Notes: generated from the sequence alone by a model not told the origin. Shown: positions 11,797-50,360, counted from the stretch's first letter. The stretch is DNA of 64,000 nucleotides from a virus (IMGVR_UViG_2563366947_000002), one strand, 5' to 3'. Translations and numbers: made by a program.

Positions 11797-12738
11797 TTAA
11801 CTAACAATCCAGTCCATAGCAATAACATCCTCTGGAGCTAAATCAATAGCATGGATTTTCCCGTCCCGGATGGTGCGCCAGTGCTTTCGTGATCCACCTT
11901 CGGGCCATACCCATACACCTTCAGGCCAGGAAGAACGACGACACACTGTTGCGTATCCAGTCCTGATCTTCTCTCTGGCGGTATGTAGTGACAGATTATC
12001 CTTTGGGCTTTCAGGCACAGGATGGTGGATTGCCTGAAACATCCCCATCTTTGGATGATACCAGCGTTTATTGCGTGGTTCTGCCTCCGACATCACCTGC
12101 TTAAAGGCTTTCCGGAAGGGGGCTAGGGCCACAATGGAGCGTCGCGCAAGCAAACCATCTGGAGTTAAAAACTCATGCGTATCGGTGGGAATCCGGTAAG
12201 CGTTGACCAGGTTTCGGCATTTGGCTTCAGTCAGGCCGCATTTCGCCGCCAGCTGGCGGTAGCCAATGTAGCCTTCCGGCATATTGCCTTTCTTTATTTG
12301 CTCGACGGTTTCAGCGACTTTGGACACTTGTGCCGATACTTCGGCTACCTGGGCATTAACAGCGTTGATCCGGCGTTCATGCTCAAGATGCATTTGCGCC
12401 ATTTCAGCCAGGATTTCGGCTTTTGATTTTAACGGTCCCCTGGCATTCTCCAGTTCGCGCCAGCGGTCCACCAGCCGGGCGGTGAATTCCGGAGAGAGCT
12501 GTGCGACGACAATGATACTATCGCGCTTGCCTTGTTCGCCTTCGAAGACATAGGCTTTTGTGTATTTATTAGGGCTAAGTGATTGATTATTCTCAACTGT
12601 AGCCAATGGCGTATGTTGGATAACACCTTTAGCAACAAGTCTTTCGATGCTGCGTTTAACATCAGAGTGACGACTTCCCACCAGTTTCGCGATCTCAATA
12701 CTGGTCATTGTCGCTTTGCGAGAGATGGGCAGATTCAT
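11797..12738 (-). CDS. antirepressor-like protein with C-terminal small RR..W..G..W / DW-ending domain
   Basis: 313 aa; ATGA overlap with upstream icd-like ORF; paralogue of 49085..49792 plus 48888..49088. Confidence 0.45.
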   Translation of the reverse strand: MNLPISRKATMTSIEIAKLVGSRHSDVKRSIERLVAKGVIQHTPLATVENNQSLSPNKYTKAYVFEGEQGKRDSIIVVAQLSPEFTARLVDRWRELENARGPLKSKAEILAEMAQMHLEHERRINAVNAQVAEVSAQVSKVAETVEQIKKGNMPEGYIGYRQLAAKCGLTEAKCRNLVNAYRIPTDTHEFLTPDGLLARRSIVALAPFRKAFKQVMSEAEPRNKRWYHPKMGMFQAIHHPVPESPKDNLSLHTAREKIRTGYATVCRRSSWPEGVWVWPEGGSRKHWRTIRDGKIHAIDLAPEDVIAMDWIVS

Positions 12739-12953
12739 CAGTGCACCTCCACGCAGTTCATCGGCAGATTCCAGTAATTGAGGATCTCCATCGCATCAAG
12801 AGTGAAGCGTGCGGCAAAAATGCAGGGTTCTTCAGGAAGGTATGAACGAGCTTCTGCTTCGGTAGCAGCCATTACGCAGATATACAGGTGTTTTTGGCAG
12901 GAATAGAAACGCCAGATAAATTCAGAATGAGTTGGGGTAGGGATAGTAGCCAT
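12738..12953 (-). CDS. Icd-like small protein (positional)
   Basis: 71 aa with EFIWRF motif shared with paralogue at 49792..50015; AAGGAGG SD. Confidence 0.4.
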   Translation of the reverse strand: MATIPTPTHSEFIWRFYSCQKHLYICVMAATEAEARSYLPEEPCIFAARFTLDAMEILNYWNLPMNCVEVH

Positions 12954-13133
12954 ATTGGCAGCCTCCTTTTGCTAATTTAAGGAGCTACCGCGTGAGGTTC
13001 CAATCTCAATGGCGGTAGCACTGACTGGGTTGGAACTACCGGCGCAAAAGGGAACCGGCCTGCCTTTCGGCAGCCCAGCCAGCACTACCATTGATCTCTG
13101 AGCTAAACGCTACGTATGGCTGTGCGATGGCAT

Positions 13134-13175
13134 GACACAAAAAAAGACGCTTTCGGCGTCTGTGTCGCCTTTTGC
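13134..13175. terminator. bidirectional intrinsic terminator in icd/ant leader
   Basis: GACGC-tttcg-GCGTC hairpin with A7 upstream and overlapping GGCG...CGCC hairpin with TTTT downstream. Confidence 0.55.
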
Positions 13176-13265
13176 ATTATCCGGGGTTCCAATCCCGGCA
13201 CCCGTTTTTCTAAGGTGCCGTAGAAATATACCCCACGATAATGCCAGGGCGCAACAGTCAGTATT

Positions 13266-24738: not shown

Positions 24739-25179
24739 TCACTCCACCACAAACCAGTCACATGCCAGTAAGTCGCCTACAGAAGGAACCCACGGAACAA
24801 CTACACCTTGTGCATTTTTTAAGGCGAAATAAGCACCATACGGAACGAGGTCGCCGGGGAAATATCCCTTAATGGCTTCCATTCGTGCCGGGTACTGTCC
24901 TTCAGGAACCAGCCAGCAGAATTGGTTTTCGCCGTTCCACCCGCGTCGAGCAACTTTCTTGCCATCCTTCAGCCACATCAGCGCGTCAGAAAAGTCGGCT
25001 GCTTCAAGGTCGATTTCTTCTTGCTGGGTGGTGATGCCACCAGCAGAAATAGTTACGCTCCCGGTAAGATTAATCATCACGCCGTTGTCATCCGTAATGA
25101 TGACCGTGGTTCCATTTTTTTTGTGAGCTTTGTATTTTGGAAGGAACTTAAAAAGCTCTTTCGTTGCCATGTTATTCAT
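24739..25179 (-). CDS. protein with DUF2829-like C-terminal domain (tentative)
   Basis: 146 aa; FSDALMWLKDGKKVARRGWNGENQFCWLV ... DWFVVE pattern as I recall for DUF2829. Confidence 0.4.
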   Translation of the reverse strand: MNNMATKELFKFLPKYKAHKKNGTTVIITDDNGVMINLTGSVTISAGGITTQQEEIDLEAADFSDALMWLKDGKKVARRGWNGENQFCWLVPEGQYPARMEAIKGYFPGDLVPYGAYFALKNAQGVVVPWVPSVGDLLACDWFVVE

Positions 25180-25193
25180 AGTCTTTTCTCTGC

Positions 25194-25688
25194 TTATAAC
25201 TTTTCGTACTGAAGCGGTGAACGCTTAATTTCAAAGTGGCCTTCCGATGTGCTACCAAAGCCACCATCACCACGTTCCGTTTCGTTGAGTTCCTCAACCT
25301 CGACTAGTGAGACTTGTTCAACACGCTCAAAAATTCCTTGCATGACAGCCATTCCAGGCTTGAGACAAACGCCTTCCCCGCCGGGATCAGTAATCAGTTT
25401 TGCCATGATTTCGCCGCGATAATCGGAGTCGATAATTCCTACGCAGTTAGCCAGGCGAGTATGTTTTTTGCAGCCCAATCCGGATCGCGGATAGAGTTTC
25501 AGACACCAGCCGGGCGGGATCTCCATAGCCAATCCGGTGTACACCCACCAGCTTGAGGAAATTGCACCATTGCTATCGACACATGGTTTTATTTCAACAG
25601 CCTCAAAATCCATCGCCGCCGATCCGGAGGTGGCATAAGCTGGAAGTTTTGCTGCCGGATGTAGGCGTTTCACTTTTACGTAAATCAT
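25194..25688 (-). CDS. dut: dUTP diphosphatase
   Basis: YATSGSAAMDF, GIIDSDYRGEI, RGDGGFGSTS motifs align with E. coli Dut. Confidence 0.85.
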   Translation of the reverse strand: MIYVKVKRLHPAAKLPAYATSGSAAMDFEAVEIKPCVDSNGAISSSWWVYTGLAMEIPPGWCLKLYPRSGLGCKKHTRLANCVGIIDSDYRGEIMAKLITDPGGEGVCLKPGMAVMQGIFERVEQVSLVEVEELNETERGDGGFGSTSEGHFEIKRSPLQYEKL

Positions 25689-32433: not shown

Positions 32434-32826
32434 CTACCAGCGAGACAAACGAACAACATGTTTCACTTTTGCGATCCACTGTCCGCGATAACTATTGATT
32501 ACGGCCTGTGCCAGCTTCAAATTGGCTTCAAAATCAGCCTTACTACCATCAGACTCCACCAGCATTCCGCCATCTATTTCTGGTAAACATAGATAATCCT
32601 GCTCAACCTGCAGCGGCATTGATGGCTCTCTGAATGGCGTTACTTGCTCTGCTTTCCAACGAAATCTAACCCTCATCCCCCTGGTGGTCATTACTAGATA
32701 GCCTGTTATAGTGCTTTTATGGCCCACATCAGTACGCGTGGCATTGCATGACACGATCTTACAGTTAGCGATAGACCACTCAATATTGGTGGCCTGTTGA
32801 GTGCTTAATTTGGTAGTCCCGTACAT
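32434..32826 (-). CDS. hypothetical protein
   Basis: 130-aa ORF. Confidence 0.4.
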   Translation of the reverse strand: MYGTTKLSTQQATNIEWSIANCKIVSCNATRTDVGHKSTITGYLVMTTRGMRVRFRWKAEQVTPFREPSMPLQVEQDYLCLPEIDGGMLVESDGSKADFEANLKLAQAVINSYRGQWIAKVKHVVRLSRW

Positions 32827-33401
32827 CAGAAAGCCTCCCAGTCAGTCGCGATAATATCCACACCAGTTGCAAACCAGTCTGTCTGCGCCTGTAAATCACC
32901 ATTCATCATTACCAGGCGAGGCATCACCATCACATCGCACCCTTCCACAATATCGAATGCCTCTTCCGGCAAGAATTCGAAGAGCTTTTCTTTGCTGCCA
33001 ATGCTGCCACGGAACATCGATATATAGCTCCCTTTAGGCCATGATGTCCGCCGGGCATCAAGCCCTTTCATCATCCAGTAAAAAGCCGAGGAAAAAGGGA
33101 TATTCTTTTTGCCAATGATTACATTATTCGCTTCTGTGTACTTCAGGAACTTAACTAACCTTACCATTGACTCGGATAACGCAACGTATGGCTCATGATT
33201 GATTGCTGACACGCTTACACCGTGCAATCCAACGCTTACCACTGTCATATCGCCGCTCTGTGCGGTTTCGATATTGACGCCTTTGCGAACTAATGAGGCG
33301 TAAAGTTCCTCTCGCTTTTGGGTCCAGCGTTCACGCTTCCCTATGAAGTCACTCAAAATGAGATCTTCTTCTGCATATGCGTTATCGTTCGCCATTAACA
33401 T
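32826..33401 (-). CDS. hypothetical protein with DUF2829-like segment (tentative)
   Basis: 191 aa; AFYWMMKGLDARRTSWPKGSYISMF ... ATDWEAF. Confidence 0.35.
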   Translation of the reverse strand: MLMANDNAYAEEDLILSDFIGKRERWTQKREELYASLVRKGVNIETAQSGDMTVVSVGLHGVSVSAINHEPYVALSESMVRLVKFLKYTEANNVIIGKKNIPFSSAFYWMMKGLDARRTSWPKGSYISMFRGSIGSKEKLFEFLPEEAFDIVEGCDVMVMPRLVMMNGDLQAQTDWFATGVDIIATDWEAF

Positions 33402-38178: not shown

Positions 38179-38493
38179 TTACTGTGTTGCAGCCTGATAA
38201 ATAAGATACGCGATAAATACAGGTACGATGGCCCATTGCAGCAATGAAAGTAGCCTCATTACTGTTATTGGGGTAACTCCATCCACGTATTGTTTCTCTG
38301 ACATTTTCCCTAACCAACTAACCGACAACAGTGCCGAGTTTTCACCCAATTCCAGCTCTCTGAGAGCTTCACGGATTAACGGCGCTGTCACAGCCTGAAC
38401 CGGTGTGCTCAACGTGATACTCCGCGTCCTCCCCGCATCGTCAGCGAACGCCAGACTCACATAATATTTTTTGCTCAATGTACAAACTCCCAA
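38179..38493 (-). CDS. small membrane-anchored protein
   Basis: 104-aa ORF with C-terminal hydrophobic helix. Confidence 0.35.
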   Translation of the reverse strand: MGVCTLSKKYYVSLAFADDAGRTRSITLSTPVQAVTAPLIREALRELELGENSALLSVSWLGKMSEKQYVDGVTPITVMRLLSLLQWAIVPVFIAYLIYQAATQ

Positions 38494-38675
38494 TCATCAG
38501 CGCTTGCACTTTCCGGGGTTATGTGAACCTTATCGCCAGTAACAATATTGCGAGCTTCAAAACTTCCATTGATACGTTTCGAGATCTCAATACATAGAGC
38601 CTGCTGCCATGAGCGACGACGAGCGATAGCATTAGTTCCTGCAGGGATAAGTTCTGCCACGTTATGTAAACGCAA
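38475..38675 (-). CDS. hypothetical protein
   Basis: 66-aa ORF between neighbouring genes. Confidence 0.3.
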   Translation of the reverse strand: MRLHNVAELIPAGTNAIARRRSWQQALCIEISKRINGSFEARNIVTGDKVHITPESASADDWEFVH

Positions 38676-48887: not shown

Positions 48888-49088
48888 TCAAGTCACCATC
48901 CAATCATTACCGATTATATCAGCCGTCGATAAATCAACTTCCCGGATCTGGAGTCCATTAATACAAAACCATCCGGTAGTAGAGTAATTATCAGGCCAGG
49001 CCCATACACCAACACTCCATGCTTTACGGCGGCACACTTCAGCCTGTCCTTCCCTGATTTTTTTTACCGCCTGCATGATGTCCATCAC
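48888..49088 (-). CDS. small DUF2829-like protein (split C-terminal module of antirepressor paralogue)
   Basis: 66 aa; AEVCRRKAWSVGVWAWPDNY ... NDWMVT aligns with C-terminus of 11797..12738 product. Confidence 0.4.
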   Translation of the reverse strand: MMDIMQAVKKIREGQAEVCRRKAWSVGVWAWPDNYSTTGWFCINGLQIREVDLSTADIIGNDWMVT

Positions 49089-49792
49089 TCACCTCCCCAA
49101 CCGATCACCTGGAATTGCCCCATTTTGGGGTGATACCAGCGTTTTCCTCGGTGTTCAGCCTCCGACATCATCCGGTTAAAAGCATTCATGAAGGGAGATA
49201 AGGCCACGATGGAACGACGCGACAATACCCCCTCTGGAGTTAAAAACTCATGTGTATCGGTGGGAATCCGGTAAGCGTTGACAAGGTTGCGACATTTGGC
49301 TTCAGTCAGGCCGCATTTCGCCGCCAGCTGGCGGTAGCCAATGTAACCATCTGGCATATTGCCCTTCTTGATTTGCTCGACGGTTTCAGCGACCTGGCTA
49401 ACCTTTGACTCAACAGCATGAAGCCGCTTTTGCTGCTGAACTGCATTTGCAGCCATTGCGGCGATCATCTCTATTTCGGTCAACGGCTGGCGTACTTGTT
49501 CTTCCAGTTCGCGCCAGCGGTCCACCAGCCGGGCGGTGAATTCCGGAGAGAGCTGCGCAACGACAATGATACTGTCACGCTTGCCTTGCTCGCCTTCGAA
49601 GACGTAGTGTGAATTTTTAACTTTAAATCCTAAGTTATTGATATTTTCGGAAACCTCCATTGGAGGAAGTGGAATAACACCTGATTTACTCAAGCGTTCA
49701 ATAGTGCGTTTAACGTTATCCGGGCGACTTCCCACCAGCTCCGCGATCTCAATGCTGGTCATTGATGGCTTTTCAAGAATGCAGATATCCAT
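49085..49792 (-). CDS. antirepressor-like protein (paralogue of 11797..12738)
   Basis: ATGA overlap with icd-like ORF; MTSIEIAELVGSR... and central region near-identical to first copy. Confidence 0.45.
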   Translation of the reverse strand: MDICILEKPSMTSIEIAELVGSRPDNVKRTIERLSKSGVIPLPPMEVSENINNLGFKVKNSHYVFEGEQGKRDSIIVVAQLSPEFTARLVDRWRELEEQVRQPLTEIEMIAAMAANAVQQQKRLHAVESKVSQVAETVEQIKKGNMPDGYIGYRQLAAKCGLTEAKCRNLVNAYRIPTDTHEFLTPEGVLSRRSIVALSPFMNAFNRMMSEAEHRGKRWYHPKMGQFQVIGWGGE

Positions 49793-50015
49793 CAATGTGC
49801 CTCCGCAATGCCGGGATTGGTAATATTGCGATACCAAGGATTAGTGTTTGGTTGTGGGGAAGTAGAGAAACGACCAGTAAGAACACCATACTGATCAGGG
49901 ATCAGAGAACGGGCTTCTTTTTCGGTTGCGGCAATTGCGAAGTGATCGCAATGTTTTTGCAGGGAGTGGAAACGCCAGATAAATTCCGGGCGCGAGCAAG
50001 GATTGGCATTAACCA
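49792..50015 (-). CDS. Icd-like small protein (paralogue)
   Basis: ATG at 50015 with GAGG SD; MVNANPCSRPEFIWRF...; ORF track extends into leader. Confidence 0.4.
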
Positions 50016-50360
50016 TAGTTACGGCCTCATTCGTAGGTTTAACAACCTGCGCCCCCGCTGCTAAACGGGTGGCAGGACGTGACGGGGTTAGCAGACTGGC
50101 ACGAATGAAACCAGCAGGCCGAAGCCTCCCCATCACGCCCCACCATAATTCGGGCGTAACGTGGTGTTACGGACACAAAAATACCGCAATATCGGATATC
50201 TGCGGTTGTCCGCATTCGTATTCAGGCTGCTAAACCCGGTCGCAGAATTTGCTACGACGGCATGAATATAAGCCTGAAAACATGGAAGATCAACTAAAAA
50301 TTTCAGCAATGGATGACTTCAGTCGATGATGCAGATCATACATTCCGATTTAGAAACAGC

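Follow-up and report, generated by a model that had tools for sequence, protein, structure and literature searches.

Tad2 proteins are molecular sponges that constitute a major phage route against nucleotide-signalling immunity, namely the Thoeris, Pycsar and CBASS systems. In Tad2 of phage SPO1, the signal 1''-3' gcADPR is contacted by residues W25, N26, W73 and D79, and a bound water is coordinated by S76 (bioRxiv 10.1101/2023.05.01.538930). Other Tad2 proteins have 3'cADPR, N7-cADPR or cyclic dinucleotides as ligands, and ModTad2 sequesters His-ADPR, the signal of type II Thoeris (bioRxiv 10.1101/2024.01.03.573942), as well as cUMP and cCMP (bioRxiv 10.1101/2025.08.24.671296). According to a 2025 survey carried out with DefenseFinder, Tad2 is present in 93% of the D6 phage-plasmids and in 56% of those of the P1 group (bioRxiv 10.1101/2025.09.12.675607). 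Elements of the P1/D6 kind are frequent among clinical E. coli, Shigella and Salmonella. The present analysis concerns a viral DNA of this kind, IMGVR_UViG_2563366947_000002, of which the whole stretch analysed (64,000 nucleotides) is called the window. An earlier note, made from the sequence alone, had proposed that four of its open reading frames (ORFs) share one small DUF2829-like domain: those of the 146-amino-acid (aa) protein p146, of p191, of the antirepressor-like protein p313, and of p66 (Table 1).

The part of the window that surrounds p146 shares 99.9% identity with Escherichia phage D6 (MF356679 / NC_050154), and equally with many ~90 kb non-mobilizable plasmids of Escherichia and Salmonella. 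The window is therefore assigned, by its sequence, to the D6 type of P1-like phage-plasmids. All four genes are present on the minus strand where the earlier note had placed them, and all four are found in the D6 reference genome; the support for a shared domain is uneven between the copies. The explanation that we favor, with moderate confidence, is a composite one: p146 would be a tetrameric sponge for TIR-derived signals, p191 would be a second binder with a different specificity, and the short domains that form the C-terminus of p313 (p313C) and the whole of p66, here called mini domains, would be small binding modules that act autonomously, are expressed early and have an uncertain ligand.

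The part of this explanation that concerns p146, taken alone, is held with considerable confidence. Residues 62–145 of p146 match the Pfam family PF11195 (Tad2-like/DUF2829) with 81.3 bits (E 7.7e-23), above the curated gathering threshold of 25 bits. Its best sequence matches in the PDB are to ModTad2 (8V3E/9EIB, E 8e-21), and further matches were obtained to HgmTad2/AcrIIA7 (8KBI, E 9e-12), SPO1 Tad2 (8SME) and SptTad2. The domain is 45.5% identical to ModTad2 over 88 columns and 36% identical to SPO1 Tad2, and the fold of the family (an N-terminal helix, an antiparallel beta1-beta5 sheet, and a short helix before the last strand) is ascribed to it via the 45% identity to a solved structure. 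Residues W25, N26, W73, D79 and S76 of SPO1 Tad2 correspond to W81, N82, W130, D136 and S133 of p146, all of which are kept (four of the four main contacts plus the water-coordinating Ser), and the beta2-beta3 insert with alpha2 is also present. These similarities identify p146 as a genuine Tad2-family protein, and it is already labelled 'DUF2829 domain-containing protein' in RefSeq. By homology to ModTad2, p146 would be a homotetramer with pockets between its subunits, in which 3'cADPR, His-ADPR or N7-cADPR would be sequestered, possibly along with cyclic mononucleotides. Such a protein would be expected to blunt Thoeris-type, perhaps Pycsar-type, defence in Enterobacteriaceae. The anti-defence function that the earlier note had suggested as a possibility is thus well founded, as a predicted sponge or anti-Thoeris activity, only for p146, with its 45% identity to ModTad2 and its complete set of contacts; the case is weaker for p191, which keeps three of the four contacts, and for the mini copies, which keep two and are without alpha2.

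As a whole, p146 is an in-frame deletion variant (~79 aa) of DUF2829 proteins of 216–233 aa that are common in P1-group phage-plasmids. Residues 1–20 and 21–146 align to opposite ends of this long form, and residues 1–57 are a remnant of a longer N-terminal region. The ~79-aa N-terminal domain that is missing from p146 (ASKIK...GGYL..Y.PE..FE) has no Pfam match. The gene upstream of p146, at a distance of 14 bp, encodes a dUTPase, and the two genes are probably in the same operon; p146 appears to be co-transcribed with the genes for the Dre recombinase and the dUTPase. The probable operon comprises the recombinase gene (dre), two unknown ORFs, dut, p146 and an isaA-like gene. It is bracketed on the minus strand by a strong sigma-70-like site upstream of the recombinase gene (TTGGCA-16-TATAAT, 27775-27748, 11/12 matches) and by a terminator-like hairpin at 23945-23930, both of which are consensus matches only. 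In some E. coli records, dUTPase and Tad2 occur as a single fused ORF of 241 aa (P0030); a functional fusion and a stop-loss or frameshift artefact are both possible.

The second Tad2-domain protein, p191, matches PF11195 over residues 103–190 with 39.1 bits (E 1.1e-9), again above the threshold; no relevant match was found among PDB sequences. In the AlphaFold2 (AF2) model of p191, the core of the C-terminal domain has a predicted local distance difference test (pLDDT) score of 92–97, and when this model was compared with the PDB in Foldseek, the top 22 matches were all Tad2 (TMt 0.6–0.84). Three of the four main contacts are kept (W121, W176 and D182), the N26 position is occupied by P122, and the beta2-beta3 insert with alpha2 is present, at low pLDDT. 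Among 50,697 phage records p191 was found only in D6, and it was also found in 125 plasmids. Homologues with 54%, 42% and 22% identity adjoin lpa in phage-plasmids of Shigella, Enterobacter and Pantoea. Across the homologues, down to 22% identity, W121, W176, D182, D187 and W188 are invariant, and the N26 position is Pro or Gly. That three of the four pocket residues are kept in such distant homologues suggests that the binding site was retained and its specificity changed: with both Trp and the Asp invariant and the Asn replaced, the pocket of p191 would most likely bind a ligand with a different specificity.

Residues 1–95 of p191 were modelled as alpha-beta-beta-beta-alpha, with pLDDT 56–79 from effectively a single sequence, and gave weak Foldseek matches to double-stranded RNA-binding domains (probability 0.4–0.9), which are no more than a lead. 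In addition, the stop codon of p191 overlaps (ATGA) with a gene for a 130-aa protein that has no match in Pfam (32434-32826, minus strand; D6 orf5, phrog_7004). A homologue of orf5 is kept downstream of the p191 homologue in Shigella, and its product is a likely functional partner of p191.

The names that these proteins bear in databases would point elsewhere, to anti-CRISPR proteins of the AcrIIA7 kind or to toxins of type I toxin–antitoxin (TA) systems. The deposited name of HgmTad2 is 'Inhibitor of Type II CRISPR-Cas system / AcrIIA7'; however, the authors of the Tad2 work hold that DUF2829 proteins are anti-Thoeris and not anti-CRISPR, and binding to Cas9 has never been shown. Type II CRISPR-Cas is not known from E. 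coli or Salmonella, which also counts against an anti-CRISPR role. Similarly, PGAP calls the plasmid homologues of p191 'MW1434 family type I TA system toxin', a name that looks misleading for a protein with a Tad2-like domain. The proteins considered here have soluble alpha/beta domains and are not small membrane peptides, and MW1434 is an 81-aa ORF of S. aureus phiSa2 that was described as a type I toxin by bioinformatic prediction only (PMC6266405). Both readings were rejected as database names without experimental basis, and they are given next to no credence.

The two remaining copies, p313C and p66, are clearly paralogues of one rare mini form, as judged from their 42% identity (E 1e-19). 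The body of p313 is that of an antirepressor (Phage_pRha, 32.6 bits; phrog_63 Ant, E 2e-61), and its residues 252–312 match phrog_7385, as does p66 (E 2.5e-49). The mini copies escaped a narrow Tad2 hidden Markov model (HMM) made from homologues of p146, so profile–profile and structural tests were needed. When the mini family was aligned with the Tad2-domain alignment in hhalign, a probability of 89.9% was obtained (P 1.7e-6) over 62 colinear columns, with a single gap of ~20 columns at the place of the beta2-beta3/alpha2 insert. Moreover, two relatives of p66, P0128 and P0125, match PF11195 over their full length, with 37.4 and 23.9 bits (threshold 25). In the best AF2 model of p66 (pLDDT 88.9), a helix at residues 4–12, four strands, a helix at 55–59 and a strand at 63–65 follow each other in the Tad2 order. 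Compared with the PDB in Foldseek, this model had Tad2 chains as all of its top 12 matches, with template modelling (TM) scores of 0.72–0.78 and probability ~1, and the next match had a probability of 0.44. Against BFVD, 11 of the 12 best matches had probability ~1, and every named protein among them was a DUF2829 or 'Thoeris anti-defense 2-like' protein, including natural forms of 63–75 aa.

Together, the profile and model comparisons support p313C and p66 as divergent minimal members of the Tad2-like fold, remotely linked to it; for p313C the link runs only through the p66 family, the fold being ascribed via the 42% identity to p66. The resemblance to DUF2829/Tad2 that had first been noticed is therefore borne out at two levels, since two copies pass PF11195 and the other two are reached through remote homology and structure prediction. 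Profile searches and structure comparison assigned the segments to no unrelated family and brought out a shared fold; an NCBIfam search gave no match for any copy. As far as sequence databases reach, the mini family is genuinely small. A word-indexed homologue search with p66 gave only 3 matches, only 7 members were found when 1.8 billion representatives were searched exhaustively in HMMER with a p66/p313C profile, and among phage records the mini domain occurs only in D6. The family is so small that no deep alignment of it is possible.

Each mini copy is located at the 3' end of a module composed of a C4 RNA, an icd-like gene and a Rha-type ant gene, and the element carries two such modules. 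In both, the C4 RNA lies upstream and is followed on the same strand by the icd-like ORF and then by ant, which is the immI-type arrangement. The mini domain is fused to Ant in module 1 and is a separate, coupled gene in module 2. In module 1, the icd-like gene lies directly upstream of p313, with an ATGA overlap; this module also contains a match to an isrK-like Hfq-binding small RNA (13140-13218, 62.5 bits). In module 2, the start codon of p66 is likely the ATG at 49085 rather than the GTG: this ATG lies five bases after a GGAGGTGA Shine-Dalgarno motif, is in TGATG overlap with the stop codon of the upstream Ant paralogue, and is the start annotated in phage D6. The Ant paralogue itself matches phrog_63 (E 2.7e-48), HTH_24 and Phage_pRha (26.2 bits). 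Between the two modules, identity is 67% for the Ant bodies (the paralogue versus p313 residues 1–237), 43% for Icd and 42% for the mini domains, and these values fit an old duplication, or a double acquisition, of the whole c4-icd-ant-mini module. Since both mini copies belong to C4-controlled immI operons, they would, by analogy with P1, be expressed under C4 antisense control and made transiently, right after infection or induction.

Several observations weigh against the composite explanation. For p146, the ligand cannot be named from the sequence, because the residues of the strand at the specificity positions (LKNAQG, conserved in the p146 clade) differ from those of both SPO1 Tad2 and ModTad2. 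For p191, the multiple sequence alignment (MSA) given to AF2 was seeded with Tad2 homologues. For the mini copies, the arguments from operon and timing are an analogy with P1, and a search with the P1 C1-operator consensus gave 0 matches at up to 3 mismatches. The other points, which also concern the mini copies, would be expected if the likeness of p313C, p66 and a candidate fifth copy (described below) to Tad2 were a chance RRxxW ... DW motif on a generic small alpha+beta fold, with two true copies only. When compared directly, pair by pair, the p146/p191 group and the p313C/p66 group show no significant similarity. The match of p66 to PF11195 is full-length and colinear but stays below the 25-bit threshold (15.3 bits, E 0.03), and p313C, also when searched alone, does not match this family in Pfam. 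In a search of PDB sequences with the mini-family profile, AcrIIA7/HgmTad2 came second and third, with non-significant E-values of 0.29 and 1.2. The AF2 result for p66 comes from a 7-sequence MSA, with one confident model of five (the other four have pLDDT 44–70), and the Foldseek E-values of this model in the PDB are only ~0.04, because the domain is short. However, the hhalign match is full-length and colinear (P 1.7e-6), P0128 and P0125 match PF11195 end to end, and the best structural matches in both the PDB and BFVD are Tad2/DUF2829 proteins, with a sharp drop after them. A chance resemblance is accordingly judged quite improbable.

The ligand pocket of the mini copies also speaks against the composite explanation. 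Two of the four main contacts are kept in p66 (W24, S25, V51, D57) and in p313C (W, P, I, D), the equivalent of N26 being Ser or Pro and that of W73 being Val or Ile. Furthermore, the alpha2/beta2 element of the V-shaped Tad2 dimer is absent from both, as seen from the hhalign gap and from the lack of a helix in the AF2 model. The mini copies thus lack two features of the functional sponge family, and because these are missing, the canonical tetramer and pocket may not form in them. This could mean that only p146, and perhaps p191, is a sponge, and that the mini domains are degenerate, non-binding oligomerisation or partner modules for Ant, which would engage, for example, a C1-type repressor. 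One mini copy does form a single protein with Ant, the other is coupled in translation to a paralogue of Ant, and Tad2 folds are inherently oligomeric. However, stand-alone mini homologues (P0125, 96 aa, and P0126, 68 aa) are found in other phage-plasmids of 88–110 kb, away from any Ant gene; the Ant paralogue of module 2 is annotated and conserved without a mini domain; W24 and D57 of p66, the equivalents of SPO1 W25 and D79, are invariant within the mini family at 30–40% identity; and the natural DUF2829 proteins of 63–75 aa are independent phage genes. For these reasons, a role confined to Ant is considered rather unlikely. The genes for P0125 and P0126 belong to a small plus-strand cluster with the major capsid gene on one side and the upfB/upfC(PAAR)/ParM region on the other. 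This cluster appears to be a hotspot for accessory genes, separate from the immI operons.

The composite explanation, by contrast, takes the mini domain as probably an autonomous small binding module, because it also exists as a separate gene, both here, where p66 has its own Shine-Dalgarno motif and start codon, and at other loci in related elements, where its homologues stand away from Ant. It would plausibly act as an early anti-defence factor and would not be integral to the antirepressor mechanism. It can also be imagined that the Ant-linked mini domain is a sensor, which would bind a host immune nucleotide, tune the antirepressor and so couple TIR/cGAS-type signalling (Thoeris, CBASS, Pycsar) to the lysis–lysogeny switch. 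The fusion of a ligand-binding fold to a regulator of the immunity circuit, under C4 control, and the conservation of the W25 and D79 equivalents are what such a sensor would display. However, this idea is purely conjectural and no precedent was found in the literature searched; in addition, the split and stand-alone forms point to a domain that acts independently of Ant, and the mini pocket is incomplete. A sensor function is therefore held to be highly improbable; in a weaker variant of this reading, which would still be new, D6 would be equipped with four to five sponges, each of a different specificity.

A further ORF, at 38475..38675, which the earlier note had not listed, is tentatively regarded as a fifth, more divergent mini copy. 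Its product reads 'ARRRSW ... ADDWEFVH' and resembles p66 in its length and in its RRxSW ... DDW ends. When the mini-family HMM was run over the six frames of the window, this ORF scored 16.3 bits, with an E-value of 1e-3 for 1174 segments, and the highest score among 2000 shuffles was 9.9 bits. An alignment of its family was built from five plasmid homologues of 38–77% identity, all of them open frames of 66–67 codons, and hhalign aligned this family with the mini family with a probability of 87.2% (P 3.9e-6, 61 columns). Neither the candidate nor its homologues match PF11195 in Pfam, no direct link to canonical Tad2 was found, and a scan of genome contigs for this candidate gave no match.

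Table 1. Tad2-like genes and domains of the window and the genetic elements around them.
Feature	Coordinates	Strand	Description
p146	24739..25179	-	146 aa; D6 orf114, annotated 'DUF2829 domain-containing protein'
p146, Tad2-like domain	24742-25008		residues 58-146
p191	32826..33401	-	191 aa; D6 orf6, annotated 'hypothetical'
p191, N-terminal alpha/beta domain	33110-33401	-	residues 1-~95
p191, C-terminal Tad2-like domain	32829-33107	-	residues ~99-191
p313	11797..12738	-	313 aa, Rha/Ant type; D6 orf82, annotated 'anti-repressor Ant'
p313C, mini Tad2-like domain of p313	11800-11994	-	residues 249-313
p66	48888..49088	-	66 aa from GTG; likely start ATG at 49085 (p65, 65 aa); D6 orf17, annotated 'hypothetical'
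Candidate fifth mini copy (tentative)	38475..38675	-	66 aa, TTG start; D6 orf11, phrog_7206
icd-like gene 1	12738..12953	-	ORF; D6 orf83, 'host cell division inhibitor Icd-like'
C4 antisense RNA, module 1	13008..13095	-	Rfam RF01695, 76.7 bits (gathering score 45)
Ant paralogue without mini domain	49085..49792	-	D6 orf18, 235 aa; ORF open up to 49837
icd-like gene 2	49792..50016	-	D6 orf19 annotation mapped onto the window
C4 antisense RNA, module 2	50065..50150	-	Rfam RF01695, 71.9 bits, and RF03163, 54.6 bits
a1/b1 target element of the module 2 C4 RNA	50219-50271		
dUTPase gene	25194..25688	-	PF00692, 55.5 bits

The earlier note had also held that several copies in different fusion contexts would be unusual, which is overstated with respect to the fusions themselves. 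Fusions are frequent in this clade: among close homologues, Tad2 is found behind an N-terminal domain, joined to crAss001_48 and joined to dUTPase, and double copies occur elsewhere, as in two Lactobacillus phages with two good structural matches each to the p66 model in BFVD. With the p146 domain, tblastn identified 378 places in 367 phage records. What remains of the claim is the number of copies and their setting: in the literature searched, no report was found of a single ~91 kb element with four to five copies, nor of a Tad2-like domain attached to immI antirepressor operons. As p146 is already known, the new elements are three or four unannotated divergent paralogues, which include a minimal subfamily of ~65 aa in two C4-controlled antirepressor operons. 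These extra copies, of putative ligand-binding function, are a modest new observation.

If the extra paralogues do bind ligands, D6-type elements would carry a multi-specificity anti-signalling toolkit of which DefenseFinder and PGAP see only one gene, and the sequence range of the Tad2 fold would extend to a core of ~65 aa. Through the link to C4-controlled antirepressors, one would have a tangible example, open to experiment, of a fold for binding immune signals that is built into the immunity circuit of a prophage. If, on the contrary, the extra copies are inert, the result is an improved annotation of a known family.

Five groups of described systems are relevant for comparison. SPO1 Tad2 (Gp34.65; 8SME/8SMF/8SMG) is the founding anti-Thoeris 2 sponge for 1''-3' gcADPR, and its fold (alpha1, a five-stranded sheet, and a short helix before the last strand) is predicted to be common to all copies. 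The equivalents of its W25 and D79 are found in all four copies and all four main contacts in p146, whereas p191 has Pro for N26 and the mini copies have Ser or Pro for N26, Val or Ile for W73, and no alpha2. ModTad2, from a Myroides odoratus prophage (8V3E, 9EIB), is a tetrameric sponge for His-ADPR in type II Thoeris and for cUMP/cCMP in Pycsar. It resembles the p146 domain in length, in the GWNG and PSxxDxLAxDW motifs and in the beta2-beta3 insert; p146 differs from it by a 57-residue N-terminal remnant and by the strand LKNAQG where ModTad2 has LKTVDN.

The Tad2 proteins HgmTad2/AcrIIA7 and SptTad2 (8KBI-8KBM, 8WJD) have a second pocket that accepts cyclic dinucleotides. They are sequence matches for p146, structural matches for p191 and the best (non-significant) PDB sequence match for the mini profile. 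Their beta2-beta3 inserts are longer, and their cyclic dinucleotide pocket is located at the alpha2 interface, a feature absent from the mini copies. With regard to size and predicted fold, p66 is like the short DUF2829/Tad2-like phage proteins of BFVD (63–75 aa; for example A0A8S5M8A0 and A0A1L2CVD1; TM 0.72–0.80), with which it shares only 14–24% identity and none of which is known to be linked to an antirepressor.

Finally, the immI operon of P1 (c4 antisense RNA – icd – ant) has the same gene order as both D6-type modules. A Tad2-like domain appended to P1 immI is not described in the literature searched. The D6-type element differs from P1 in three respects: it has two modules per element, its antirepressors are of the Rha type, and a Tad2-like domain is appended to each module, either fused to the antirepressor or encoded by a coupled gene.

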